64,000 nucleotides of DNA from NCBI RefSeq assembly GCF_013315695.1, contig NZ_CP054353.1, one strand, 5' to 3'. Every line of letters begins with the position of its first letter. Positions within the stretch are counted from its first letter, which is position 1. A program made the translations under genes and the position numbers. This stretch comes from Escherichia coli (GTDB lineage: Bacteria; Pseudomonadota; Gammaproteobacteria; Enterobacterales; Enterobacteriaceae). Shown one piece after another: positions 9,822 to 57,044 of this stretch. Under the pieces are notes generated by a model. The model saw only the letters and a list, made by a program, of their open reading frames with translations. It was not told the origin of the DNA and did no database searches.

Positions 9822-10937
9822 ATGGCGAGCGTACAGCTGCAAAATGTAACGAAAGCCTGGGGCGAGGTCGTGGTATCGAAAGATATCAATCTCGATATCC
9901 ATGAAGGTGAATTCGTGGTGTTTGTCGGACCGTCTGGCTGCGGTAAATCGACTTTACTGCGCATGATTGCCGGGCTTGAGACGATCACCAGCGGCGACCT
10001 GTTCATCGGTGAGAAACGGATGAATGACACTCCGCCAGCAGAACGCGGCGTTGGTATGGTGTTTCAGTCTTACGCGCTCTATCCCCACCTGTCAGTAGCA
10101 GAAAATATGTCATTTGGCCTGAAACTGGCAGGCGCAAAAAAAGAGGTGATTAACCAACGCGTTAACCAGGTGGCGGAAGTGCTGCAACTGGCGCATTTGC
10201 TGGATCGCAAACCGAAAGCGCTCTCCGGTGGTCAGCGTCAGCGTGTGGCGATTGGCCGTACGCTGGTGGCCGAGCCAAGCGTATTTTTGCTCGATGAACC
10301 GCTCTCCAACCTCGATGCTGCACTGCGTGTGCAAATGCGTATCGAAATCTCCCGTCTGCATAAACGCCTGGGCCGCACAATGATTTACGTCACCCACGAT
10401 CAGGTCGAAGCGATGACGCTGGCCGACAAAATCGTGGTGCTGGACGCCGGTCGCGTGGCGCAGGTTGGGAAACCGCTGGAGCTGTACCACTATCCGGCAG
10501 ACCGTTTTGTCGCCGGATTTATCGGTTCGCCAAAGATGAACTTCCTGCCAGTAAAAGTGACCGCCACCGCAATCGATCAAGTGCAGGTGGAGCTGCCGAT
10601 GCCAAATCGTCAGCAAGTCTGGCTGCCGGTTGAAAGCCGTGATGTCCAGGTTGGAGCCAATATGTCGCTGGGTATTCGCCCGGAACATCTACTGCCGAGT
10701 GATATCGCTGACGTCATCCTTGAGGGTGAAGTTCAGGTCGTCGAGCAACTCGGCAACGAAACCCAAATCCATATCCAGATCCCTTCCATTCGTCAAAACC
10801 TGGTGTACCGCCAGAACGACGTGGTGTTGGTAGAAGAAGGTGCCACATTCGCTATCGGCCTGCCGCCAGAGCGTTGCCATCTGTTCCGTGAGGATGGCAC
10901 TGCATGTCGTCGACTGCATAAGGAGCCGGGCGTTTAA
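9822..10937 (+). CDS. malK: maltose ABC transporter ATP-binding protein MalK
   Basis: Start [15 protein letters not shown]; Walker [10 protein letters not shown]; ABC signature LSGGQRQR; 371 aa. Confidence 0.95.
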
Positions 10938-10978
10938 GCACCCCACAAAACACACAAAGCCTGTCACAGGTGATGTGA

Positions 10979-12349
<1,371 letters not shown>

Positions 12350-12355
12350 TAGCAA

Positions 12356-12485
<130 letters not shown>

Positions 12486-12590
12486 AAAAACAGGTTGTCA
12501 TTATCTGAAAGGGGCGAAAGCCCCTCTGATTATCGGGTTTAGCGCGCTATTGCCTGGCTACCGCTGAGCTCCAGATTTTGAGGTGAAACA

Positions 12591-13511
12591 ATGAAAATGA
12601 ATAAAAGTCTCATCGCCCTCTGTTTATCAGCAGGGTTGCTGGCAAGCGCGCCTGGAATCGGCCTTGCCGATGTTAACTACGTACCGCAAAACACCAGCGA
12701 CACGCCAGCCATTCCATCTGCCGCGCTGCAACAACTCACCTGGACACCGGTCGATCAATCTAAAACCCAGACCACCCAACTGGCGACTGGCGGCCAACAA
12801 CTGAACGTTCCCGGCATCAGTGGTCCGGTTGCTGCGTACAGCGTCCCGGCAAACATTGGCGAACTGACCCTAACGCTGACCAGCGAAGTGAACAAGCAAA
12901 CTAGCGTATTTGCGCCGAACGTGCTGATTCTTGATCAGAACATGACCCCATCAGCCTTCTTCCCCAGCAGTTATTTCACCTACCAGGAACCAGGCGTGAT
13001 GAGTGCAGATCGGCTGGAAGGTGTTATGCGCCTGACACCGGCGTTGGGGCAGCAAAAACTTTATGTTCTGGTCTTTACCACGGAAAAAGACCTCCAGCAG
13101 ACGACCCAACTGCTCGACCCGGCTAAAGCCTATGCCAAAGGCGTCGGTAACTCGATCCCGGATATTCCTGACCCGGTTGCTCGTCATACCACCGATGGCT
13201 TACTGAAACTGAAAGTGAAAACGAACTCCAGTTCCAGCGTGTTGGTCGGGCCTCTATTTGGTTCTTCCGCTCCAGCTCCGGTTACGGTAGGCAACACGGC
13301 GGCACCAGCTGTGGCTGCACCCGCTCCGGCACCGGTGAAGAAAAGCGAGCCGATGCTCAACGACACGGAAAGTTATTTTAATACCGCGATCAAAAACGCT
13401 GTCGCGAAAGGTGATGTTGATAAGGCGTTAAAACTGCTTGATGAAGCTGAACGCCTGGGGTCGACATCTGCCCGTTCCACCTTTATCAGCAGTGTAAAAG
13501 GCAAGGGGTAA
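12591..13511 (+). CDS. malM: periplasmic protein MalM
   Basis: 306-aa ORF with signal peptide; last gene of the malK-lamB-malM operon. Confidence 0.9.
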   Translation: MKMNKSLIALCLSAGLLASAPGIGLADVNYVPQNTSDTPAIPSAALQQLTWTPVDQSKTQTTQLATGGQQLNVPGISGPVAAYSVPANIGELTLTLTSEVNKQTSVFAPNVLILDQNMTPSAFFPSSYFTYQEPGVMSADRLEGVMRLTPALGQQKLYVLVFTTEKDLQQTTQLLDPAKAYAKGVGNSIPDIPDPVARHTTDGLLKLKVKTNSSSSVLVGPLFGSSAPAPVTVGNTAAPAVAAPAPAPVKKSEPMLNDTESYFNTAIKNAVAKGDVDKALKLLDEAERLGSTSARSTFISSVKGKG

Positions 13512-13738
13512 TTACGCCCTACAGTGCTGATTTTGCAACAACTGGTGCGTCTCCTGGCGCACCTTTTTTTATGCTTCATTCCTGGGATATGAGCGATTTT
13601 TTATAGTACTTCGCTTCTTCTTCACTAAGAATATCCATTATCTCAATGCCTTATCAGAGATTCTTTTCCTTTCACCGGTAGTGTCTGGACGCTCAGGCTA
13701 CTTTTCCAGTAATTTCATTTCTGTAATACAGAGGTTTT

Positions 13739-37976: not shown

Positions 37977-38513
37977 ATGGCCAGCAGAGGCGTAAACAAG
38001 GTTATTCTCGTTGGTAATCTGGGTCAGGACCCGGAAGTACGCTACATGCCAAATGGTGGCGCAGTTGCCAACATTACGCTGGCTACTTCCGAATCCTGGC
38101 GTGACAAAGCGACCGGCGAGATGAAAGAGCAGACTGAATGGCACCGCGTTGTGCTGTTCGGCAAACTGGCAGAAGTAGCCAGCGAATATCTGCGTAAAGG
38201 TTCTCAGGTTTATATCGAAGGTCAGCTGCGTACCCGCAAATGGACCGATCAATCCGGTCAGGATCGCTACACCACAGAAGTCGTGGTGAACGTTGGCGGC
38301 ACCATGCAGATGCTGGGTGGTCGTCAGGGTGGTGGCGCTCCGGCAGGTGGCAATATCGGTGGTGGTCAGCCGCAGGGTGGTTGGGGTCAGCCTCAGCAGC
38401 CGCAGGGTGGCAATCAGTTCAGCGGCGGCGCGCAGTCTCGCCCGCAGCAGTCCGCTCCGGCAGCGCCGTCTAACGAGCCGCCGATGGACTTTGATGACGA
38501 TATTCCGTTCTAG
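37977..38513 (+). CDS. ssb: single-stranded DNA-binding protein
   Basis: 178-aa protein [44 protein letters not shown] with Gly/Gln-rich tail and C-terminal DFDDDIPF. Confidence 0.98.
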
Positions 38514-38553
38514 AGTTAACTTGTGAGTTATTTGTAAAGAATCCATACGCAGG

Positions 38554-38580
38554 CCCCTGTTAATTCAGGGGTTTTTTGTT
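38554..38580 (+). terminator. rho-independent terminator of ssb
   Basis: cccctg-ttaattc-cagggg hairpin followed by a T-run. Confidence 0.8.
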
Positions 38581-38671
38581 TCTATCGTCGGAAAAAGTGT
38601 CTTGTATAAATTGGTGATTTTTCACATAAAGTGTACCTTGTAATTGTGTAATGTTTATGGGGTGTGAGTGC

Positions 38672-39919
38672 ATGGAAAAGAACTACAGAGTTACAACATT
38701 TGTCATGGATAGTGGCGAGCGCTATTGCATGGTAGTGGATCGTGCTTCTGGGCTTCCCATGTATTACCCCACTCTGTTTCTAACAACTCAAATCCGCAAT
38801 AGAGAGGATGCTTTTTCAACGATGTTGGCGGCGGCTAACAACCTGGTTATGTTGTTACGCTTTGTAGAGAGTCGCGACATTGACCTTGAGCAGCGGTTTT
38901 TGACCAAAGACTTCTTCAAGCCACATGAGCTGGATGATCTGCGAGATTTTGCTCAGTGCAAACAAAGAAAGGGGCCATTAACTGTGTCCTCTACCTCTTG
39001 GTTGGCCGATGCGATGACCGATATCGTTGATAACGGGACACAGCATTCCCGGCTAACAACGTTTGCCAACTATTTACACTGGTATGCGATGCATATCTTA
39101 AAGACGACAGAACTGGAAGTTGTCGAAAAGATCAATGCTATGGCGGCGCAGATAAAGACGCGCCGACCATCTAAAAAGCGCAGAAACCACGACTTACAAG
39201 ACAGGTCATTGAGTGATGTTCAATTGGACGCGCTATTTGAAGTCATCCAGCCTAGATCAGAGTTAAACCCTTTCTCAATAGATGTGCAGCGCCGCAATCG
39301 GCTGATGATCTTACTTCTGTTTTATCTTGGCATCCGAGGTGGTGAATTATTAAATATAAGAATACAGGACATAGATTTTAGCGCTAACAGGATCCGTATC
39401 GTTAGGAGAGCAGATGAACAAGCTGACTCTAGAACCAATGAGCCTAATGCTAAAACTAGAGAACGGCTCTTACCGTTGGCTGAATCCTTAGCTCAAGAAC
39501 TGCATAGTTATATCCTTCAAGATCGCCGGAAAGTCAGAAATGCGAAGAAAAATGACTATCTGTTTGTAACTTACAAGAGTGGACCAACTCTGGGAAATCC
39601 TATCTCCAAAGGGGGATATCATAAAATTTTTTCCGTAGTCAGGTCTATATCACCGCAATTGTATGCAGCGACAGGACATTCGCTCCGCCACACTTGGAAT
39701 CGCAAGTTTTCAGAAAGAATGGATGCCATGAATGAGCAAGTCAGCGAGGAACGCCAAGAGCAACTTCGTTCGTACTTAATGGGCTGGAGAGATGGCTCGG
39801 GAACCGCAGCGACTTACAACAAGCGTTTCATTCGGCAAAAAGGTTTTGAGGCCGCCTTGGCATTACAAGCAGGTAACGGCACTAGCTTGCCAGAGGACTT
39901 CAAGGATGACCATGAATAA
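38672..39919 (+). CDS. tyrosine recombinase 1 of 3 (phage-integrase family)
   Basis: Integrase motifs: box-I Arg region LLFYLGIRGGELLNIRIQDIDF, GHSLRHTW (H-x-x-R) and LMGW...TAATYNKRF (catalytic Tyr). Alternative ATG starts at 38651 and 38657. Confidence 0.8.
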   Translation: MEKNYRVTTFVMDSGERYCMVVDRASGLPMYYPTLFLTTQIRNREDAFSTMLAAANNLVMLLRFVESRDIDLEQRFLTKDFFKPHELDDLRDFAQCKQRKGPLTVSSTSWLADAMTDIVDNGTQHSRLTTFANYLHWYAMHILKTTELEVVEKINAMAAQIKTRRPSKKRRNHDLQDRSLSDVQLDALFEVIQPRSELNPFSIDVQRRNRLMILLLFYLGIRGGELLNIRIQDIDFSANRIRIVRRADEQADSRTNEPNAKTRERLLPLAESLAQELHSYILQDRRKVRNAKKNDYLFVTYKSGPTLGNPISKGGYHKIFSVVRSISPQLYAATGHSLRHTWNRKFSERMDAMNEQVSEERQEQLRSYLMGWRDGSGTAATYNKRFIRQKGFEAALALQAGNGTSLPEDFKDDHE

Positions 39920-41444
39920 CCTCTTACTTGGGTTAGTACCAGAACGAATCCGTGCCAGGGCCAATGGCTACTCTTTTCTGTTGTATGACACATCGTGGAC
40001 ATTGGATAGAAATATCACTATTAATCTTGCTGATATTCACCATTACTTGTCAGATGGGACGCTAGATGGCTGCCTGCGTACACTGGCGTTTTATGCATCC
40101 AATCGTTCTTCTTCTCATACAAAAAATATTCTTGAACGGTTTCAGCACATGCTGCGTGAGACTGACGCGAGAGAAATTACTGATACGGTATTGATTAATT
40201 ATCGGTCGATGCTGTCGCCTGCAACAGAATGGTATCTAGCAACCATCCGTGGCTTTCTTCGATCCTGGCACGAACTGGGCTATCCCGGCATCAGTAAGGA
40301 GGTGAACCGCTTGCTAGATGGCTGGACGCTAAAGGGTAATCGTAAGGGGGATGCGGTTAAGCGCATGGATCCTCAAGAGGGGCCACTGACGGATAATGAG
40401 CTGACAGCGTTTAACGAGGGGGCTGTTCGGGCTTATGAAAAGAGCTTAATTACTATAGCTGAGTTGGCTATAGCACTTGGCACCAGTCATACAGGACGTC
40501 GTCCCATTCAGATCTCGCTGCTTCGTGTGGTCGATGTCCTTTGTGGTAAAAATGGAAAGGGAGAGCCCTTCTATGTGTTGAATGTGCCGCGAGCCAAGCA
40601 GCGCAGCAGCTCTTTCCGAATAAACTTCAAACCATTTGCAATATCACTGGAACTATGGGCAATCCTGAGTGCTCAGGCAAGAAATGCGATTGCGCAGGTT
40701 GAAAATCGTTTGGGGTTTGAATTGCAGGAAGATGACCGGCAGCAAATCCCTCTTTTTCCTGATCTTGATGTGTTAGATGCCGTCCAATCTCCTTATGAAT
40801 TCCGCCAACTGCATGCTACCGACAAACTCCACATTCCCGCCGCAGAGATAACCGACACCCTCCAATACATCGTAGAAAAGTCCGACATCCGGTCGGAACG
40901 TACCGGTGAGCTATTACATATCAATGCTCGTCGTTTTCGTTATACCACAGGCACACGAGCTGCCCGGGAAGGCTTTGGCGAGCTGGTGATTGCGGAACTG
41001 CTTGACCACGCGGACACCCAAAACGCAGGCGTTTACATCAAGAATATCCCCGAGCATGTGAAAAAGCTTGATGAGGCGGTTGGCTTCCAATTAGCACCAT
41101 ACGCTCAGGCCTTTGTCGGGGCACTTGTCGATTCAGAGAGAGACGCGCATCGAGGTAACGACCCTACCAGTCGTATTCGGACCGAAATGGGTCAGGGTGT
41201 TGGTACTTGTGGAGAACATGGCTTTTGTGGTGCCAATGTTCCTATTCCTTGCTACACCTGCATGCATTTCCAGCCTTGGCTGGACGGCCCACATGAAGAT
41301 GTCTATCAAGGACTGCTCAACGAACGTGAACGGGTGAAAGAGATAACTGGCGACATCCAGATTGCTGCCGTACTTGATCGCAGTATTATCGCGCTGGCAG
41401 ATGTGATCATGCGTTGTGCAAAACGTCGTGAAGAGCTTAGTTAA
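39905..41444 (+). CDS. tyrosine recombinase 2 of 3, with C-terminal Cys-rich region
   Basis: Start ATG overlaps the stop of recombinase 1 (translational coupling); ARRFRYTTGTRAA ... LLDHADTQNAGVYIK resembles the R/H-x-x-R ... Y catalytic region; Cys cluster CGEHGFCGANVPIPCYTCMHF. Confidence 0.7.
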
Positions 41445-41460
41445 CAGGGAGCAATAACCA

Positions 41461-43494
41461 ATGGCTGAGATTTTCCTGTTTAAGCCAAAGGCTACGCTGA
41501 CAGCAGCAGAAAACCTTGAAGCATTCATATCCCAGTGCCGAGATCAATTGACTGTATTCGGCTCTGATCTCACTTGGGAAGATCCTGTTTGGCCAAACAT
41601 AACTGTATTTGCCAAGTTGGGCATTATTACGAGAAAACCCATACTGGAAGAGACGCAAGACCCTGCTTTCATTGATTTTGCCAAAGCCTATTTCCGTTAC
41701 CAGCAGGGGCATAGCCTCTCTAGGGCAAAGAATGAAAGTAAAGCCCTCCGTGCGGTTGAGGCGGCTTTGCTTCAAGTAAATGGAAACGCAAATATTGATG
41801 GCCTGTCGATTTCTGTGCTGGATGAAGCAGCTGAATTGGCAAAGCATTACTACTCCGATGGCTCCGCATATCATTGTGGCCGTGAGATTGAGCGGCTGGC
41901 TAAGTTTGTAGCTGAAAACCAGCTTGTATCAAGTGCTGTACAAAATTGGGTCAATCCAATTAAACGTGCAGAGGATAAGAACAAAACGAGCAGAAAGGCG
42001 AAGAAAAATAGGGAAGATAAACTTCCGAGTGATATTGCTCTTAATGCGTTGGCGGAAATTTTTGCCAACGACCCAATTCATGAGCGAGACATATTTACAA
42101 CATCGGTTTTTGCCATGTTGATGTCGGCACCTTCACGTATTACTGAGGTGTTAGCACTGCCTGTGGATTGCGAGGTTTTTGAAACGGATCGTGAAGGGAT
42201 AGAACGATATGGTTGGCGTTTTTTTGCGGGGAAAGGCTATGAGGGTGATATCAAATGGATACCCACCGTGATGGTCGGTATAGCTAAGACAGCCGTAGCT
42301 AGAGCTAGAGTGCTCTCTGAAAATGCACGACAACTGGCCAAGTGGATCGAGAAACACCCGAATAAGTTTTACCGCCATGCTAACTGTCCCAGTGTAGCCG
42401 ATGATGAGCCATTGACGATGAAGCAGGTTTGTATGGCGCTCGGTTTTGCACATTACTCTAAAAAGACGTGCAGGTCGTGTCTTGGTAATCGAGGTTTAGC
42501 TAAAGAGGATGGTGTACATACTCTAAATAGCCTGTGGCAGCACACAATGGCGCGTTTACCGGATGGCTTTCCGTGGTTTGATAAAGACAAGGGAATTAGG
42601 TACAGCAATGCCTTGTTTGTACTGAACGTAAATCAGTTCCACGGGAACAGAGGATGCATACCAGTTGAGTTACATAAGCCAACCAATAATTTCTTCAACA
42701 GTGATCTGACGCCTCGTCTGTCCTTGAAAGGAAAACATGCCAGTATCTTTGATCGCCATGGTTACCATGCTGTAAACGGAGAGCCGGTGAAATTAACCTC
42801 ACATCAGGCTCGACACCTGCTCAACACCATTATCCAGCGCGGTGGCCTGTCAAACTTGGAAATTGCCAAGTGGTCGGGGCGGGCAGATGTGAAACAGAAT
42901 CGAACTTACAACCACATGACTGAATACGAACTGGTTGGCATTGCTGAACGCCTTGATCCCACAACAGCGCTATTTGGGCCTGCTGGCGAGGTGGCAAAGC
43001 ATCTGCCCGTGACTATGCAGGAGTTCAATACCTTAGAGCATGCCGCAGTCCATGTGACGGAGTATGGCTACTGTGTGCATGATTACACCATGAGTCCTTG
43101 TGAGAAATTCCGAGATTGCGTCAATTGTACCGAACAGGTTTGCATCAAAGGCGATGATGCTGAAAAGTTGGATCGCATTAAGATACGTCTGGAGAAATTA
43201 GAGCGACTGTTTTTTCTTGCTGACGCAGCAGTGGAAAGTGGTGAGATAGGAACTGATCGCTGGTATCAGTACCACAAGAAAACTGTTACCCGGCTTCGTG
43301 AACTAGTGGCTATTTTAGAGAATCCAGACATTGAAAATGGTGTCCAGATTAAGCTCCGGGGCAATGATTTCAGCCAGCTTCGCCGTGTTGTCGCAAAGAC
43401 GTCTATTGTGGCCATCGAGCAAAAAGGCAAAGAAAGTGAAGAAGCTGTGATGTTAGATGATTTGACAACTTTGTTAGGAGGTGGCCTTGGCTAA
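41461..43494 (+). CDS. tyrosine recombinase 3 of 3 (677 aa), with C-terminal Cys-rich region
   Basis: LTSHQARHLLNTIIQRGG ... WSGRADVKQNRTYNHMTEYE (H-x-x-R-H ... Y); Cys cluster YGYCVHDYTMSPCEKFRDCVNCTEQVC; begins 16 bp after recombinase 2. Confidence 0.75.
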   Translation: MAEIFLFKPKATLTAAENLEAFISQCRDQLTVFGSDLTWEDPVWPNITVFAKLGIITRKPILEETQDPAFIDFAKAYFRYQQGHSLSRAKNESKALRAVEAALLQVNGNANIDGLSISVLDEAAELAKHYYSDGSAYHCGREIERLAKFVAENQLVSSAVQNWVNPIKRAEDKNKTSRKAKKNREDKLPSDIALNALAEIFANDPIHERDIFTTSVFAMLMSAPSRITEVLALPVDCEVFETDREGIERYGWRFFAGKGYEGDIKWIPTVMVGIAKTAVARARVLSENARQLAKWIEKHPNKFYRHANCPSVADDEPLTMKQVCMALGFAHYSKKTCRSCLGNRGLAKEDGVHTLNSLWQHTMARLPDGFPWFDKDKGIRYSNALFVLNVNQFHGNRGCIPVELHKPTNNFFNSDLTPRLSLKGKHASIFDRHGYHAVNGEPVKLTSHQARHLLNTIIQRGGLSNLEIAKWSGRADVKQNRTYNHMTEYELVGIAERLDPTTALFGPAGEVAKHLPVTMQEFNTLEHAAVHVTEYGYCVHDYTMSPCEKFRDCVNCTEQVCIKGDDAEKLDRIKIRLEKLERLFFLADAAVESGEIGTDRWYQYHKKTVTRLRELVAILENPDIENGVQIKLRGNDFSQLRRVVAKTSIVAIEQKGKESEEAVMLDDLTTLLGGGLG

Positions 43495-43906
43495 GCATCT
43501 GGACAATAGAGACATTAACGCCATCGTAAATCTAATTCGAGGATGGAAGGAACCAAAACTGTCCTGGTCAGCAATTTGTGAGGCGGCAGAACCATTGGTC
43601 GGAAAGTTGCCGTCAAGACAGTCCCTTAATGCACATGAGGCAATAGTGACTGCCTATCAAACAAAGAAAGAGGCGCTTAAAGGCCGTGGCCCCAAAAATC
43701 CGCGTCCAGCTAGTTTGAACATTGCAGCCGCGAGGATTGTGAATCTTGAAAGCGAAATCGAAGAGCTTAAGGAAGAGAACCGGAGGTACAAACAACAGTT
43801 TGTGATCTGGCAATACAATGCATACAAATATGGAATGACAGAACATCAACTTAATGCGCAGCTGACAAAGATTGACCGTGAGCGCTCTGATGGAGAAAGA
43901 AGATAG
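43481..43906 (+). CDS. small recombinase-associated protein (141 aa, predicted coiled coil)
   Basis: ORF start overlaps the recombinase-3 stop by 14 bp; charged, helix-prone sequence (LESEIEELKEENRRYKQQF); placement is like TnpC of Tn554-type elements. Confidence 0.6.
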   Translation: MALAKHLDNRDINAIVNLIRGWKEPKLSWSAICEAAEPLVGKLPSRQSLNAHEAIVTAYQTKKEALKGRGPKNPRPASLNIAAARIVNLESEIEELKEENRRYKQQFVIWQYNAYKYGMTEHQLNAQLTKIDRERSDGERR

Positions 43907-43981
43907 TTGCTGAGTACGATATCGAGGGTACATTTCTCTGTGTAGGGGTAGTTATTTACAAAAAAATAGGAGAATAATTAA

Positions 43982-46900
43982 ATGGTCAAACCAAACTGGG
44001 ATAACTTTAAAGCTAAATTTAGTGAGAATCCTCAAGGTAATTTTGAGTGGTTTTGCTACTTGTTGTTCTGTCAAGAATTCAAAATGCCCGCAGGTATATT
44101 TAGATATAAGAATCAATCTGGTATCGAAACTAATCCAATAACCAAAGATAATGAAATTATCGGTTGGCAATCTAAATTCTATGACACAAAATTGTCGGAT
44201 AACAAAGCTGATCTTATAGAAATGATTGAGAAAAGCAAAAAGGCTTATCCAGGATTAAGTAAAATCATTTTCTATACTAATCAAGAGTGGGGGCAGGGGA
44301 GAAAGTCCCATGAACCTGAAGGCGATAAGAACGCTGATAATTATTTGGAAACTGTCGGAAATAGTAACGATCCCAAAATAAAAATTGAAGTTGATCAGAA
44401 AGCATATGAGTCGGGTATCGAAATAGTATGGAGAGTTGCTAGTTTTTTTGAATCACCGTTTGTAATAGTTGAGAATGAAAAGATTGCTAAACATTTCTTC
44501 TCCCTTAATGAAAGCATCTTTGATTTATTAGAAGAAAAGCGCAAGCACACAGAAAATGTTTTATATGAAATTCAAACCAATATAGAGTTCAAAGACAGAA
44601 GTATTGAAATTGACAGACGACATTGTATAGAACTTCTACATGAGAATCTAGTTCAGAAAAAAATTGTCATCGTCAGCGGAGAAGGTGGGGTTGGAAAAAC
44701 AGCAGTTATCAAAAAAATTTATGAAGCAGAAAAACAATACACTCCTTTCTATGTCTTTAAGGCTAGCGAGTTTAAAAAGGACAGTATTAATGAGCTATTC
44801 GGTGCGCATGGCTTAGACGATTTCTCTAATGCTCATCAAGACGAATTACGTAAAGTCATAGTCGTAGATTCTGCTGAAAAGCTTTTAGAACTGACCAATA
44901 TCGATCCTTTTAAAGAATTCCTGACTGTTTTAATAAAGGATAAATGGCAGGTTGTTTTCACAACCCGTAACAACTACTTGGCAGATCTGAACTATGCTTT
45001 CATAGATATTTATAATATAACTCCTGGAAACTTAGTAATAAAGAACCTTGAACGCGGCGAGCTAATAGAGTTATCTGATAACAATGGATTTAGCCTTCCT
45101 CAAGATGTTCGATTATTAGAACTAATCAAAAATCCATTTTATCTAAGTGAATATTTGAGGTTCTATACCGGTGAAAGCATCGATTATGTGAGCTTCAAAG
45201 AAAAGCTTTGGAATAAGATTATTGTCAAAAATAAACCTTCTCGGGAGCAGTGTTTCTTAGCGACTGCTTTTCAGCGGGCTAGTGAGGGCCAATTTTTTGT
45301 CTCCCCGGCATGTGATACTGGAATTTTAGATGAGTTAGTTAAAGACGGAATTGTCGGCTATGAAGCTGCTGGTTACTTCATTACACATGATATATACGAG
45401 GAATGGGCATTAGAAAAGAAAATTTCTGTCGATTATATCCGTAAAGCGAACAATAACGAGTTCTTCGAAAAAATAGGAGAATCACTTCCTGTTCGCCGTA
45501 GTTTTCGGAATTGGATATCTGAACGATTGCTTTTAGATGACCAGTCCATAAAGCCTTTTATCGCAGAAATAGTCTGTGGAGAAGGAATATCAAATTTTTG
45601 GAAAGACGAGTTATGGGTAGCTGTCCTTCTTTCCGATAATTCAAGCATATTTTTTAATTACTTTAAAAGATATTTACTTAGTAGTGACCAGAATCTATTA
45701 AAAAGACTTACTTTCTTATTGAGGCTTGCTTGCAAGGACGTTGATTACGATCTGCTTAAACAGTTAGGTGTAAGTAATTCAGATCTGCTTTCCATTAAAT
45801 ATGTTCTTACTAAGCCTAAGGGAACTGGTTGGCAGAGTGTGATCCAATTTATCTATGAAAATTTAGATGAAATAGGGATCAGAAATATTAATTTTATACT
45901 TCCTGTGATTCAGGAGTGGAATCAAAGAAACAAAGTGGGTGAAACGACTCGATTATCTAGTTTGATAGCCCTAAAATATTATCAATGGACTGTAGATGAG
46001 GATGTCTATTTATCCGGAAGGGATAATGAGAAAAATATTCTGCATACGATTCTTCATGGGGCGGCCATGATTAAACCTGAAATGGAAGAGGTTTTAGTTA
46101 AGGTTCTTAAAAATAGGTGGAACGAGCACGGTACCCCATATTTCGACCTTATGACCTTAATCCTTACTGACTTAGATTCATATCCGGTTTGGGCATCTCT
46201 CCCGGAATATGTTCTACAATTGGCAGATCTGTTCTGGTATCGGCCACTTAAAGAAACAGGCGAACGTTATCACAGTATGGATATTGAAGATGAGTTCGGT
46301 CTATTTAGGTCTCATCACGACTATTATCCAGAAAGTCCATATCAGACTCCTATATATTGGTTACTACAATCACAGTTCAAAAAAACAATAGACTTTATTC
46401 TTGATTTTACGAACAAGACAACGATATGTTTTGCCCACTCCCATTTTGCTAAAAACGAAATTGAAGAAGTCGATGTCTTTATTGAAGAAGGAAAGTTTAT
46501 AAAGCAATATATATGCAATCGTCTGTGGTGCTCATATCGAGGAACACAGGTCTCTACCTACTTACTTTCATCAATTCATATGGCATTGGAAAAATTTTTT
46601 CTTGAGAATTTTAAAAATGCAGACTCGAAAGTGTTGGAAAGTTGGCTTCTTTTCTTGTTAAGAAATACCAAGTCAGCTTCTATTTCTGCAGTAGTTACGA
46701 GTATTGTACTTGCATTCCCTGAGAAGACATTCAATGTAGCTAAAGTACTATTCCAAACAAAGGATTTCTTCCGTTTTGATATGAATCGAATGGTTCTAGA
46801 CAGAACACATAAAAGTTCATTAATCTCCCTCAGGGATGGCTTTGGCGGTACAGATTACAGAAACTCTTTGCACGAAGAAGATAGAATTAAAGCTTGCGAT

Positions 46901-48745
46901 GATGTGCATAGAAATACTTATCTTGAAAATCTTGCCTTGCATTATCAAATTTTCAGGAGTGAAAATGTAACGGAGAAAGATGTCATTGAAAGGCAACAAG
47001 TGCTCTGGGGTATTTTCGATAAATACTATAATCAGCTTCCAGATGAAGCTCAAGAAACTGAAGCCGATAAGACGTGGAGGCTCTGCTTGGCAAGAATGGA
47101 TCGGCGAAAGATGAAAATAACTACCAAGGAGAAAGATGAAGGGATTGAGATATCATTCAATCCTGAGATTGACCCTAAACTAAAGCAATATAGTGAGGAA
47201 GCAATAAAGAAAAACTCCGAGCATATGAAGTATGTAACGCTGAAACTATGGGCAAGCTATAAAAGAGAAAAGGATGAACGTTATAAGAATTATGGAATGT
47301 ATGAGGACAATCCGCAAATTGCTTTACAAGAGACCAAAGAAATAATAAAAAAGCTTAATGAGGAAGGGGGTGAAGATTTCAGACTATTAAATGGTAATAT
47401 ACCAGCAGACGTTTGTTCTGTATTACTGTTAGATTACTTTAATCAGTTGAATAATGAAGAGAGAGAATATTGTAAAGATATTGTTCTAGCATATTCTCAA
47501 CTTCCGTTGAAGGAAGGCTATAATTATCAGGTACAAGATGGGACAACCTCGGCAATTTCAGCCTTACCCGTGATTTATCATAATTATCCAATGGAAAGGG
47601 AGACTATAAAAACAATATTACTTTTGACACTGTTTAATGACCACTCTATTGGAATGGCAGGTGGGCGCTACTCAGTATTTCCTAGTATGGTGATTCATAA
47701 ATTATGGCTAGACTATTTTGATGATATGCAGTCTCTATTGTTTGGTTTTTTGATTTTAAAGCCAAAGTATGTAATTCTTTCAAGAAAAATCATTCATGAA
47801 AGTTATCGTCAAGTAGACTATGACATTAAAAAAATAAATATTAATAAGGTGTTTTTAAATAACTATAAGCATTGCATATCAAATGTCATCGATAATAAAA
47901 TATCTATAGATGATTTGGGAAGTATAGATATAGTTGATCTACATATTTTGAACACAGCTTTCCAATTAATTCCAGTTGATACTGTTAATATTGAACATAA
48001 GCAATTGGTTTCCTTAATTGTTAAAAGATTTTCTACAAGCCTATTGTCAAGTGTTCGAGAAGATAGAGTTGATTACGCTCTTCGGCAGTCTTTCTTGGAA
48101 AGATTTGCCTACTTTACGCTTCATGCGCCCGTGAGCGATATTCCCGATTATATAAAACCTTTTCTTGATGGTTTCAACGGTTCAGAGCCTATTTCAGAGT
48201 TATTTAAAAAATTTATTCTCGTCGAAGATAGATTAAATACTTACGCCAAATTTTGGAAGGTTTGGGATTTGTTTTTTGATAAAGTGGTTACTTTGTGCAA
48301 GGATGGAGATAGGTATTGGTATGTAGATAAAATTATAAAAAGTTACCTTTTTGCTGAATCTCCATGGAAAGAAAACTCTAATGGTTGGCACACATTTAAA
48401 GATAGCAATAGTCAATTCTTTTGCGATGTATCTAGGACTATGGGCCATTGCCCTTCAACTTTATATTCTCTTGCCAAATCTTTGAATAACATTGCCAGTT
48501 GCTATCTTAATCAAGGTATAACCTGGCTTTCAGAAATGTTGTCGGTTAATAAAAAGCTATGGGAAAAGAAATTGGAAAATGATACTGTTTATTTTTTAGA
48601 ATGTTTGGTTAGGCGGTATATTAACACTGAGCGTGAGCGAATTAGACGAACCAAACAGTTGAAAGAAGAGGTCTTAGTAATATTGGATTTTTTGGTAGAG
48701 AAAGGATCTGTTGTTGGTTATATGTCACGGGAAAATATTCTGTGA
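43982..48745 (+). CDS. large STAND-type P-loop NTPase with N-terminal Mrr/PD-(D/E)xK-like domain; candidate Avs-like antiviral sensor
   Basis: 1587-aa ORF, about one third GC. Walker A IVIVSGEGGVGKTAV; Walker B VIVVDSAEKL; sensor-1-like VVFTTRN; N-terminus FEWFCYLLF...SGIETN...IIGWQSKFY...KIIFYTNQEW resembles Mrr catalytic-domain motifs; long C-terminal region of more than 1000 aa. RBS-like GGAG upstream. Confidence 0.75.
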   Translation: MVKPNWDNFKAKFSENPQGNFEWFCYLLFCQEFKMPAGIFRYKNQSGIETNPITKDNEIIGWQSKFYDTKLSDNKADLIEMIEKSKKAYPGLSKIIFYTNQEWGQGRKSHEPEGDKNADNYLETVGNSNDPKIKIEVDQKAYESGIEIVWRVASFFESPFVIVENEKIAKHFFSLNESIFDLLEEKRKHTENVLYEIQTNIEFKDRSIEIDRRHCIELLHENLVQKKIVIVSGEGGVGKTAVIKKIYEAEKQYTPFYVFKASEFKKDSINELFGAHGLDDFSNAHQDELRKVIVVDSAEKLLELTNIDPFKEFLTVLIKDKWQVVFTTRNNYLADLNYAFIDIYNITPGNLVIKNLERGELIELSDNNGFSLPQDVRLLELIKNPFYLSEYLRFYTGESIDYVSFKEKLWNKIIVKNKPSREQCFLATAFQRASEGQFFVSPACDTGILDELVKDGIVGYEAAGYFITHDIYEEWALEKKISVDYIRKANNNEFFEKIGESLPVRRSFRNWISERLLLDDQSIKPFIAEIVCGEGISNFWKDELWVAVLLSDNSSIFFNYFKRYLLSSDQNLLKRLTFLLRLACKDVDYDLLKQLGVSNSDLLSIKYVLTKPKGTGWQSVIQFIYENLDEIGIRNINFILPVIQEWNQRNKVGETTRLSSLIALKYYQWTVDEDVYLSGRDNEKNILHTILHGAAMIKPEMEEVLVKVLKNRWNEHGTPYFDLMTLILTDLDSYPVWASLPEYVLQLADLFWYRPLKETGERYHSMDIEDEFGLFRSHHDYYPESPYQTPIYWLLQSQFKKTIDFILDFTNKTTICFAHSHFAKNEIEEVDVFIEEGKFIKQYICNRLWCSYRGTQVSTYLLSSIHMALEKFFLENFKNADSKVLESWLLFLLRNTKSASISAVVTSIVLAFPEKTFNVAKVLFQTKDFFRFDMNRMVLDRTHKSSLISLRDGFGGTDYRNSLHEEDRIKACDDVHRNTYLENLALHYQIFRSENVTEKDVIERQQVLWGIFDKYYNQLPDEAQETEADKTWRLCLARMDRRKMKITTKEKDEGIEISFNPEIDPKLKQYSEEAIKKNSEHMKYVTLKLWASYKREKDERYKNYGMYEDNPQIALQETKEIIKKLNEEGGEDFRLLNGNIPADVCSVLLLDYFNQLNNEEREYCKDIVLAYSQLPLKEGYNYQVQDGTTSAISALPVIYHNYPMERETIKTILLLTLFNDHSIGMAGGRYSVFPSMVIHKLWLDYFDDMQSLLFGFLILKPKYVILSRKIIHESYRQVDYDIKKININKVFLNNYKHCISNVIDNKISIDDLGSIDIVDLHILNTAFQLIPVDTVNIEHKQLVSLIVKRFSTSLLSSVREDRVDYALRQSFLERFAYFTLHAPVSDIPDYIKPFLDGFNGSEPISELFKKFILVEDRLNTYAKFWKVWDLFFDKVVTLCKDGDRYWYVDKIIKSYLFAESPWKENSNGWHTFKDSNSQFFCDVSRTMGHCPSTLYSLAKSLNNIASCYLNQGITWLSEMLSVNKKLWEKKLENDTVYFLECLVRRYINTERERIRRTKQLKEEVLVILDFLVEKGSVVGYMSRENIL

Positions 48746-48840
48746 TGTAGTTGAAAATAATAATTTTAATGAGAGCTTTTCCAATTTAGGCTCCAGGGAT
48801 TGGAGCCTTTTTATTATCGAAAAGATTAATATCTTATAAG

Positions 48841-49059
48841 TCAATCAGTAAAACGCAGCAAAGCTCGTTGCTCTTGAATGTTCACTCCGTGATAAATTCT
48901 TTGATTACCACATAAATAACAAGAACAAGCACAAGGGGTGCAGTAAATTTTCCCTACAACTTTTTCAGTTTTAGCCAACGCAATTCGATATGTTTTTCTC
49001 TTAGATTTTAACCGAGATATATGATGACGACGCCATGCCCGATTTCTAACCATTTCCAT
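48841..49059 (-). CDS. small basic Cys-rich ORF (72 aa), possible zinc-ribbon protein or gene remnant
   Basis: ORF with RRHHISRLKSKRK and C-x-x-C-x-C...C; lies between the convergent NTPase gene and the 273-aa gene; coding status uncertain. Confidence 0.25.
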   Translation of the reverse strand: MEMVRNRAWRRHHISRLKSKRKTYRIALAKTEKVVGKIYCTPCACSCYLCGNQRIYHGVNIQEQRALLRFTD

Positions 49060-49283
49060 TCACTCCAATTTTCTACCGCGGTGTTATACCGCGCCCGTAT
49101 CAATCTTTGGAGTTCGATATCGATCTGACCTTTCATGAATACCTCGGAATTTATCAATAAAGTGAGTGCTATATCATAGCTTATGGGATGAAAGTTTGAT
49201 ATTTAGCACTTTTCAGCTTTAGGTAAAGCTGTCCTCAATAAAGCTAATTTCTTGTTTATTAATGGAATTTCTATGTGGAAGTG

Positions 49284-50105
49284 TTAGAAATCCTGTTTTA
49301 CTTTATCCATCGTTAAAACTTTACTTATTATATAAGGATCATAATTTCTTATACTCATAAGGCAATTTATCAAATTGGAAACGTGGCTATCATCAGGTAT
49401 AAGTATATATTTAATATCATCGAAAGAAAAACCAATGCCAAATTCAGAGAATTTTTTACTTAAGACGGCCTTCTGGTTAGGTTCCACCACTCGCTCTAAA
49501 TTTAGGCTAGGCCATAAATCGCCAACAAACGGATGCGGTACATATCTCCATTCTTTTTCGTCAGCGTAGATATAATTCTCAATGGTTTTTTCGTTCGTCC
49601 TTTCTAATTTCCCTTTATAATTTTTCATATAGCGTAATAAATTATAAAGGTCAGCGTACTCTTCTTTAAGGCTTTCAAAATACTTACGCTCTTTATTATC
49701 AAGGATATGCCTTTTCGACCATAGCGGAATTAACGCATCCTTTAGTTTTCTAATTCTTTTATTATACTTTGAAAATAATTCACTGCCTTGATTCATGTAT
49801 AGAACGGGATGGAGATCATTTTTCTCAGCCCATTCTTTTGTTAACCCAAATCCAAATTCACCATATTTTCCACTATGATCTTTAATCTGAGAAAGCTTGA
49901 TGTCACAGAATGAAACCATTGGTACTGCGAAATTTCTTCTTCCTTTTACTCCGACTATGCGTTCACGGGCAAGAAATGGTTTAAAATAGAGTTCTGTTAA
50001 AATGCTATAGAATGCCTCTTCATTTTTAGTAAAGTGAAACAACGTTGTTGGATGTAAACTATTAACTGCTTGTATAACTGTTTCTTGGTTTTCTATAGCA
50101 CTCAT
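49284..50105 (-). CDS. AT-rich hypothetical protein (273 aa), possible abortive-infection or defence-associated protein
   Basis: Clean ORF convergent with the NTPase gene; no family identified with certainty from sequence alone (LFHFTKNEEAFYSIL N-terminal motif). Confidence 0.6.
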   Translation of the reverse strand: MSAIENQETVIQAVNSLHPTTLFHFTKNEEAFYSILTELYFKPFLARERIVGVKGRRNFAVPMVSFCDIKLSQIKDHSGKYGEFGFGLTKEWAEKNDLHPVLYMNQGSELFSKYNKRIRKLKDALIPLWSKRHILDNKERKYFESLKEEYADLYNLLRYMKNYKGKLERTNEKTIENYIYADEKEWRYVPHPFVGDLWPSLNLERVVEPNQKAVLSKKFSEFGIGFSFDDIKYILIPDDSHVSNLINCLMSIRNYDPYIISKVLTMDKVKQDF

Positions 50106-50512
50106 ATATTAACTGTTCCATAGTGTAAAACCTGACTTAGCAAAGGTTATCATACTAGTCTTTGTACTGTAAGCACACTTGGTTTAATTCCACGCACTTT
50201 TTGAGATTTCCGGTTTTTTGATCTCTTACCAAAATCTATGCCAGATTGAATCAAAGGTCCGAGCTGGGTCACCAAAAAAAGTAAAATTATGCACTTTGAT
50301 AGATTATATTTTAACTAAATTCTTTACAGTTAAATCATTTCTTATGCCTTAGTTTCTGATAAAAAAGGTTTTTTTTCACGATTTATAAGTATCAGGTTAT
50401 GTGAACCGTTCTGATTTGTCGTTAAAACAATAGGTTATATTGTTTTAAGGTGGATGATTAAAGCATCTGCCAGCCATAAAAAAGAAGCCTCCGTTTTGGA
50501 GGCTTCTACATA

Positions 50513-50794
50513 TCAAGTCAAAATCATTGGCCATTGTGGCGGTGTCTGATTCATCTCTTCTATCATCACCGACTCGATGTTGTGCCAGATGGCGGTGATA
50601 TCCGCCATTGTGATGCCAAGCAACCCCATTGCGAACCAGCAGGCAGAAACCACGCCCAGACCGCTGCTGATCACTGCAAGCCCGACATAATCAGACCGAC
50701 GAAAACGGATGTTGAGTGTGCTGGCCAGAAACATCATTACGGCACTAAGAAGTTGCCAGCGAAGAAGAACCACGCCAGTGGTGAGGGTAGCCAT
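50513..50794 (-). CDS. yjcB: small inner membrane protein YjcB
   Basis: 93-aa hydrophobic protein starting MATLTTGVVLLRWQLLSAVMMFLA; hairpin terminator aagcctccgttttggaggctt downstream. Confidence 0.85.
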   Translation of the reverse strand: MATLTTGVVLLRWQLLSAVMMFLASTLNIRFRRSDYVGLAVISSGLGVVSACWFAMGLLGITMADITAIWHNIESVMIEEMNQTPPQWPMILT

Positions 50795-55618: not shown

Positions 55619-57044
55619 TAATGCCAGTCAGTTAAGCAACTGACTGGCTCTTTTTCGGGGCTGTGGGGTATTTCCAGGGCCTCTCCTTTACCACTCTCGG
55701 GAAGGCCCTTTCCCTTCTTGTCGGTAATTTCACAAGTTGTCCCATACTTGCAAGATCGCGCATCAGCTCCGGTATACGTCCCGGTGAAGCGCCCTGCAAT
55801 GTCATCAGCATTCTCATCACCATTCCGCATGATTCTGAGAAACTCAGTTGATTCGGCCAGTAACCTTTCAGATGTTCCGCCATTTTAATCATCTGATATC
55901 TCACCAGATTATAAGCCAGTAAGACACCCCACAGCTCTTGCTCCACAAGCTCCGGTTTTTTACTTCTCAGCGTCAGCCTGCTCAGTTGCATCGTCTGTTT
56001 TATCTCCCTGTATCCCAGTTCGATTTCCCAGCGATGACTGTACAGATCCGCCATTTCTCCTCCGGGGAAGCGCATGGCGTCCGTCATCGACGTCAGCAGA
56101 TGGCAGACTTTTCCTTTGCGCGTCACGGTCAGCAGGCGGGCTGTCACTTCATTTCCCAGTCCCGGCCACTTTTTTCGTGCCTGCGGGCTGGTTTTCAGCT
56201 TCACCAGATGATCGCCTTTACCCAGTTTTCTGATCTCTTCATATTGCGCTCCCTTTCTGAGAGGTATCATCCAGTGGCGGTGTTCTCCCGCCAGGCTCCA
56301 GGCATTTAACAGTCCCAGTGAGTAATAACCTTTATCCATTAACGTCAGAGTGTTATCGCCGGTTTGTTCTATAAGTTGCTCAGCAAGCTCATTTTCGCTG
56401 TTCTTCATCGTGCCGAAGGCTGCAGCCGTCAGCAGATGGCTGGTCAGTTCCATCTGGCAGACCATTTTGACCTGCGGGTAGAGCGCCGGGTTCCCGGCAT
56501 GTGTCTGGCGGGGGAAGGCTGCATCGTTCTCTGGTGTATCCGGTGTGCGCCAGAACACACCATCGATGGCCAGCAGGGTCAGGCCGCACCAGTGCGGATG
56601 CGGCGTGGCGTTATGCCAGAGCTGCGCTGTTTTCGTGAACACGCGGCGGACAGCCTCACTTCCCAGGCGCTGGCGGGCCTGAATAACGGCACTGGGGGCA
56701 ACGAAGGGGCGATTGCCCGGCAGCATGATGTCCAGGCGATTCACAATCTGGTGAAGAGGTTCTTTACGCTCAAGCGCCATGCCAACAATACACCAGACCA
56801 TCATTTCGAGGGGAAGACGGCGCTTGCGTAGCGTTACAGTACCTGATTCGGCAAGGCAACGAGAGATGAGTTCGGGGTCGAGGTAATCCCCCAGAGAAGT
56901 CAGTGGGTTACGCAGAGAATCGTAACGGGATACCAGATCAAGAGCCTGTCCAATGTGCATAAAAAAATCCGGAAACAAGTGAGCGTTTCCGGATTCTTAC
57001 ACAGCCACTGGATCGGTCAACTGATCCTTAACTGATCGGCATTA
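55619..57044 (-). mobile_element. IS4 insertion sequence (1426 bp) with 13-bp target duplication GTGGCAATGGCTG
   Basis: Imperfect terminal inverted repeats TAATGCCAGTCAGTTAAGCA / TAATGCCGATCAGTTAAGGA; direct repeat at 55606..55618 and 57045..57057; encodes a DDE transposase. Confidence 0.9.
55632..56960 (-). CDS. insG: IS4 transposase
   Basis: About 442-aa DDE transposase ([16 protein letters not shown]...); the track ORF extends 6 codons further upstream. Confidence 0.9.

Follow-up and report, generated by a model that had tools for sequence, protein, structure and literature searches.

A solo AbiGi-family gene next to Avs4 on a GInt-type island of Escherichia coli is a candidate anti-phage gene

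Introduction

The closest described system to the locus studied here is lactococcal AbiG, which consists of AbiGi and AbiGii and is encoded on plasmid pCI750. A 2026 review of lactococcal systems lists AbiG with no recognisable domain and describes it as blocking phage transcription, with the major tail protein as the trigger (PMC13064643). This resistance phenotype is known only from Lactococcus. When AbiGi and AbiGii were tested in E. coli, both were non-toxic (Dy et al. 2014), which leaves the "antitoxin" label of AbiGi without an experimental basis; a family of thousands carries this label in databases without experimental support. Profile-profile comparison has placed AbiGi and DUF4433 in one ADP-ribosyltransferase (ART) family, and anti-phage ADP-ribosylation was predicted in the same work (Matteoli et al. 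2018, PMC6192313). Within the ART superfamily, the DUF2971 and Lsan_2474 ART-like families are described in the literature as the closest to AbiGi in sequence; they are separate Pfam families, and several of their members are suspected to be secreted effectors. Another enzyme of the superfamily, DarT of the DarTG system, is a thymidine ADP-ribosyltransferase acting on ssDNA. As for the carrier of the gene, GInt islands are defined by a ginABCD-like operon, cargo genes, an AT-rich 3' end and flanking imperfect direct repeats (PMC5385486).

Here, we analysed a 64,000-nucleotide stretch of an E. coli chromosome (the window), in which an AbiGi-family gene lies next to the gene for the defence sensor Avs4 on a mobile island. 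In the literature, we found no paper on solo AbiGi or on accession WP_001272932, and none that mentions both Avs4 and AbiG. The family annotation is already known, and the enzyme fold was predicted in print in 2018; modestly new are the partner-less variant beside EcAvs4 on a GInt island and the clade of relatives in prophage and defence hotspots. The gene does not represent a new kind of system but is a candidate anti-phage gene.

Results

Alignment with E. coli K-12, from which the island is absent, places the insertion between the end of ssb and yjcB, and the empty site of K-12 joins position 38511 of the window to position 50406. The insertion point of the island (Table 1) lies at the last codons of ssb, the 7-bp sequence CCGTTCT is present at both junctions, and the stop codon of ssb becomes TAG in place of TGA. 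It starts with two tyrosine recombinase genes, a 677-aa gene (called an integrase by RefSeq in another copy of the island) and a small ORF, all within 38672-43906; these are followed by low-GC cargo, comprising Avs4, a 72-aa ORF and the AbiGi gene, and then by an AT-rich end (GC 0.33 at 49500-50499). As known from this sequence layout, the carrier shares with GInt islands the three recombinase-like genes plus small ORF, the cargo, the AT-rich 3' end and the imperfect direct repeats, and it appears to be an island of this type; the likeness concerns the vehicle of AbiGi and not AbiGi itself. The whole island is also present on F-type plasmids. Elsewhere in the window (55632-56978, minus strand), a transposase gene of the IS4 family, which contains an internal stop and is annotated as a pseudogene by RefSeq, lies between ghxP and yjcE.

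Table 1. Features of the AbiGi locus and its carrier island (positions in the window)
Feature	Position	Strand	Description	Basis
GInt-type mobile island	38512..50405		11.9 kb; carries both genes as cargo	K-12 comparison, junctions, gene layout
Avs4 (EcAvs4) gene	43982..48745	+	1587 aa; convergent neighbour; context, outside the AbiGi module	PADLOC and NCBIfam Avs4
72-aa ORF	48841..49059	-	CxxC...CxxC motif; not annotated in RefSeq	phrog_4499, 5.7e-16
AbiGi-family gene	49284..50105	-	273 aa; ATG start	ORF list, clean translation
AbiGi 5' untranslated and probable promoter region	50106..50218	-		Conservation in L013, a diverged variant of the island

The original prediction of a clean, strongly AT-rich 273-aa ORF was confirmed at its exact coordinates: RefSeq annotates WP_001272932.1 ("abortive infection system antitoxin AbiGi family protein") at the identical position, the GC content of the ORF is 0.331 compared to 0.508 for the window outside the island, and 273 stop-free codons at this base composition have a chance of about 6e-11. 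The predicted tail-to-tail arrangement with a STAND NTPase in one island was borne out as well, the NTPase being Avs4 and the spacer between the two convergent genes measuring 538 bp. The AbiGi gene is under strong purifying selection (dN/dS 0.04-0.14), with a dN/dS of 0.136 against the relative on a variant of the island (89% protein identity) and of 0.044 against a plasmid relative at 80% identity, where dS is near saturation. It was found in 377 of 5,426 complete E. coli genomes (~7%), and a few truncated copies occur in the species (for example P0009, P0018 and P0039). Homology with the variant island begins about 113 nt upstream of the AbiGi ATG, at 82-88% identity. No convincing sigma-70 consensus was found in this upstream region, the sole match (9/12) being located further upstream at 50314-50286, and a promoter and terminator scan near AbiGi gave results no better than those from shuffled sequences. 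No Rfam family was found in 48600-50550, and no meaningful repeats were found around AbiGi.

The convergent neighbour scored 2361 bits with the PADLOC Avs4 model and 2066 bits with the NCBIfam model, whose cut-off is 1500. Since it also matches chain A of PDB entry 8DGF across all 1587 residues (3629 bits), the neighbour is identified by sequence as EcAvs4, for which a structure has been solved. The window thereby shows the native genomic setting of EcAvs4, namely the cargo of a GInt island. The spacer between Avs4 and AbiGi is not empty, which corrects the earlier picture of the locus; it holds a conserved 72-aa ORF that shares the strand of AbiGi and lies 224 nt downstream of it. A homologue of this ORF in the variant island (phrog_4499, 2.6e-16) is about 82% identical. 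The ORF had no Pfam match and no PADLOC hit, and it is missing downstream of AbiGi in the 15 other loci examined, where the small ORFs that follow AbiGi show no relation to it. Most likely it travels as separate cargo, and it is not a conserved partner.

The original prediction regarded the function of the 273-aa protein as unknown; as to family, this no longer holds, since Pfam, PADLOC and RefSeq all assign it to AbiGi. The PADLOC AbiGi model matched residues 19-273 on model positions 17-260 of 260 (1.6e-44), Pfam AbiGi (PF10899) matched residues 60-236 (i-E 1.4e-24), and phrog_13416 matched the protein at 3.1e-98, while the AbiGi profile was matched by all 40 aligned relatives. We consider it practically certain that the ORF product belongs to the AbiGi family. 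The NCBIfam AbiGI equivalog model NF042957 also matched nearly end to end (model positions 26-248 of 249, E 7.6e-12). Because the score of 45.2 bits falls below the equivalog cut-off of 300 bits, the product is classed by sequence as a homologue, and not an equivalog, of lactococcal AbiGI, with homology to AbiGi extending over nearly the full length. A profile search of 1.84 billion representatives, clustered at 50% identity, returned 3,798 clusters at E <= 0.001, of which 1,066 also passed E <= 1e-30. Almost every family member has a single domain and a length of about 250 aa; one homologue of 411 aa (P0087, 35% identity) has an N-terminal HNH endonuclease domain. A tblastn search of INPHARED phage genomes with AbiGi gave no match, whereas a PHROG family and 12 IMG/VR contigs among the viral data do match.

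The structural model of AbiGi has an ART-like fold, predicted to be of the DarT-like branch, and its lower-ranked structural matches include Scabin, mouse Tpt1 and TreTu. In AFDB50, full-length AbiGi-family models were matched, several of which are named DUF4433, DarT or DUF2971 by UniProt. A Foldseek search against the PDB returned nothing significant, with DarT ranked first at E 0.2; the profile of the 40-sequence alignment had no match to PDB chains even at E 10, and none of the 40 aligned members matched Pfam DarT (PF14487). The identity of DarT to the AbiGi protein is only about 10-14%, and AbiGi differs from it in having an extra helical hairpin and a C-terminal domain; judged from the model, the structural likeness to DarT is remote. 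A DarTG system was rejected, as there was neither a Pfam DarT match nor a macrodomain DarG gene in the island.

Residue conservation was scored in 137 relatives at 26-50% identity. Twelve positions are conserved at 95-100% (H24, T26, E48, F66, D68, Y81, Y103, K161, E183, E185, W186 and R187), and five of these (H24, Y81, Y103, E183 and E185) reach 99-100%. The conserved residues appear to fit an H-Y-E-like site as in DarT and not the R-S-E type given in PMC12522546, and the candidate active site comprises H24-x-T26, Y81/Y103 and E183-x-E185-W-R187. An R-S-E triad with R47 as the motif I arginine was dropped, R47 being only 26% conserved in the broader alignment. The earlier view that the protein holds no recognisable catalytic motif was revised on these grounds, since the H-x-T, tyrosine and E-x-E-W-R positions together with the fold fit a DarT-like ADP-ribosyltransferase. 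Catalytic ART activity is, in our estimate, slightly favoured.

The locus resembles lactococcal AbiG in its AT-rich composition and its carriage on mobile DNA, and it differs in the Gram-negative host, in the GInt carrier and in lacking AbiGii. With the PADLOC AbiGii model, which was run without a positive control, AbiGii was not found beside AbiGi, elsewhere in the island or in about ten contexts of relatives. Because no AbiGii was detected in any examined context, the solo state is the norm in this AbiGi clade and not a recent loss. The two-gene AbiG system was rejected for the locus itself: downstream of AbiGi lie the 72-aa ORF and then Avs4, and upstream lies the end of the island followed by yjcB, while the other ORFs of the island had no PADLOC hit. 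No candidate toxin gene of a type IV system adjoins AbiGi according to PADLOC and the RefSeq annotation, and the "antitoxin" label is probably wrong for the solo form.

About ten distinct contexts of AbiGi relatives were examined. In at least eight settings other than this island, accessory-gene sites of P2 and lambdoid prophages among them, the relatives are solo genes and Avs4 is absent. The relative at 89% identity lies on a variant of the same island (L013) that has the small ORF and extra cargo. In this copy of the variant (10377-15140), Avs4 is split into ORFs of 1072 and 510 aa and AbiGi is intact, and the extra cargo, located between AbiGi and yjcB, consists of an IS element, a caspase-like Peptidase_C14-WD40 protein and a putAbiC-like protein. 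A relative at 80% identity is carried on a plasmid fragment without Avs4. At 65-71% identity, relatives lie on SSU5-like phage-plasmids, where some stand alone ahead of a tRNA cluster and others have a 403-aa protein encoded behind them, and these AbiGi genes sit among replication genes and tRNAs. Relatives at 59-60% were found beside Lamassu in Enterobacter and near Hachiman in Serratia, those at 37-41% occupy the P2 tail-fibre/sheath hotspot and adjoin a TIR-like gene, one at 33% adjoins Upx, and relatives in Bacteroidota lie in other islands. In one prophage type, relatives at 35-59% share a single fixed site that follows the tail-fibre and lysis genes. In four of these (L022, L023, L027 and L028, 35-59%) and in L031 (38%), the slot directly follows genes of the tail-fibre, GIY-YIG, lysozyme and holin-like types; the shared slot suggests an accessory-gene position that is fixed while its cargo diverges rapidly. 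In an all-versus-all comparison of ORFs within 4 kb at 19 loci, no partner gene recurred across backbones, and only mobile-element backbone genes did. These results show that the neighbourhoods of AbiGi are typical of defence genes, and that the gene in the window is intact, under selection, mobile and solo.

The proposed check of co-occurrence with the NTPase gave a divided answer. Among the relatives at 33-80% identity the two genes are decoupled, Avs4 being absent in the prophages, phage-plasmids, plasmids and other defence islands, while within E. coli they are fully linked: Avs4 was found in 373 records and AbiGi at >=95% identity in 373, with the same identity bands. The island is nearly clonal in these data, with >=99% identity in 361 records. 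The linkage in E. coli is complete because both genes ride on this one nearly clonal island, and it need not imply a shared function.

Discussion

The best explanation that we can offer, and one in which we place as much belief as doubt, is that the gene encodes a stand-alone AbiGi, carried as GInt cargo and acting independently of EcAvs4 as an ADP-ribosylating anti-phage protein. We infer that the protein would be an NAD+-using ADP-ribosyltransferase of the DarT-like branch and would bind NAD+. It would be inactive in uninfected cells, perhaps through the helical insertion (residues 109-157) and the C-terminal domain (residues ~190-273). Once a phage infects the cell, the enzyme would either consume NAD+ or ADP-ribosylate a target, with nucleic acid and the transcription or replication machinery as the most plausible candidates; in both cases the expression of phage genes would be stalled, as in abortive infection. 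Among the possible targets we favour, with low confidence, nucleic acid or the transcription machinery, since DarT and Tpt1, the nearest structural relatives, act on ssDNA and RNA, respectively, since an HNH nuclease is fused to one relative, and since lactococcal AbiG hits transcription; nucleic acid as the specific target must be considered doubtful. The original prediction also offered a second defence or abortive-infection gene as one reading, and membership of the AbiGi abortive-infection family lends support to this reading. A role in defence is, overall, reasonably likely.

The original prediction weighed an independent gene against a partner or antagonist of the NTPase and preferred the former, a preference strengthened by the relatives without Avs4 and by the variant island in which Avs4 is split and AbiGi intact. 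AbiGi could in principle be a functional partner of Avs4 (a modulator, antagonist, safety catch or second effector) or form a pair with the 72-aa ORF. This would be in keeping with the 373/373 linkage and identical identity bands within E. coli, with the retention of the pair and the small ORF in the variant island with its 89% identical AbiGi, and with the one relative that adjoins another large sensor, Upx. However, a single, nearly clonal 12-kb island accounts for the linkage, relatives at <=80% identity never have Avs4 or the small ORF, AbiGi is intact where Avs4 is split into two ORFs, and the convergent genes form no operon. In the work of Gao et al. 2022, EcAvs4 itself reportedly gives defence as a single gene. 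We consider such a partnership very unlikely and the independence of AbiGi from Avs4 highly probable. To be an orphan type IV antitoxin that has lost its AbiGii toxin and has no activity of its own, a reading suggested by the names that RefSeq and Pfam give the family, by the two genes of the characterised AbiG system and by the truncated E. coli copies, the gene would have to reconcile this fate with strong purifying selection and with near-invariant candidate catalytic residues. It would also have to accommodate the roughly ten distinct contexts without AbiGii (as judged by the PADLOC model that lacks a positive control) and the result that neither lactococcal AbiG protein was toxic on testing, and we give this reading equally little credence.

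A more serious competitor, which we nevertheless regard as unlikely, is that AbiGi serves the mobile element as an ART or NADase for host takeover, for anti-defence (for example by modifying a host immune protein) or for maintenance of the element. The Alt and Mod enzymes of phage T4 provide a parallel, the ART fold suits such a role as well as it suits defence, most relatives reside on prophages, phage-plasmids, plasmids or a GInt, and the phage-plasmid copies are located among replication genes and tRNAs. Yet the gene occupies classic hotspots for accessory and defence genes (P2 tail-fibre/sheath, prophage ends), with repeated defence neighbours (Avs4, Lamassu, Hachiman, Upx and TIR-like), the only characterised member of the family is a defence system, and the INPHARED phage genomes are without a match. 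Among these readings, the analysis points to a separate candidate anti-phage gene as the most likely identity of AbiGi.

If the protein is an autonomous ADP-ribosylating defence enzyme, a widespread annotation would be corrected, a single-gene system would be added to defence catalogues, and the 30-year-old AbiG system would gain a biochemical mechanism; if it is inactive alone, it would be one more uncharacterised accessory gene. The gene has further interest in that it adjoins EcAvs4, which is among the best-studied bacterial pattern-recognition sensors. A broader proposal, which we advance tentatively and consider somewhat less than evenly supported, is that solo AbiGi proteins are widespread, unrecognised single-gene anti-phage effectors of a DarT-like kind, with their own sensor and no antidote, that modify phage or host nucleic acid. 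If this is true, the "antitoxin" label across databases would be wrong, and defence finders that demand AbiGii would miss the solo genes.

One further arrangement was observed among the relatives. In some SSU5-like phage-plasmids, a 403-aa protein (phrog_30092) is encoded 27 nt after the AbiGi homologue (L012, 5763-6974; L020, 5849-7060). It was ruled out as AbiGii, since PADLOC gave no hit for it and the only other match, to the nuclease-like HSDR_N, was weak, and it may be an alternative partner of AbiGi that is unrelated to AbiGii. Sister SSU5-like phage-plasmids have tRNA genes in place of the 403-aa gene.
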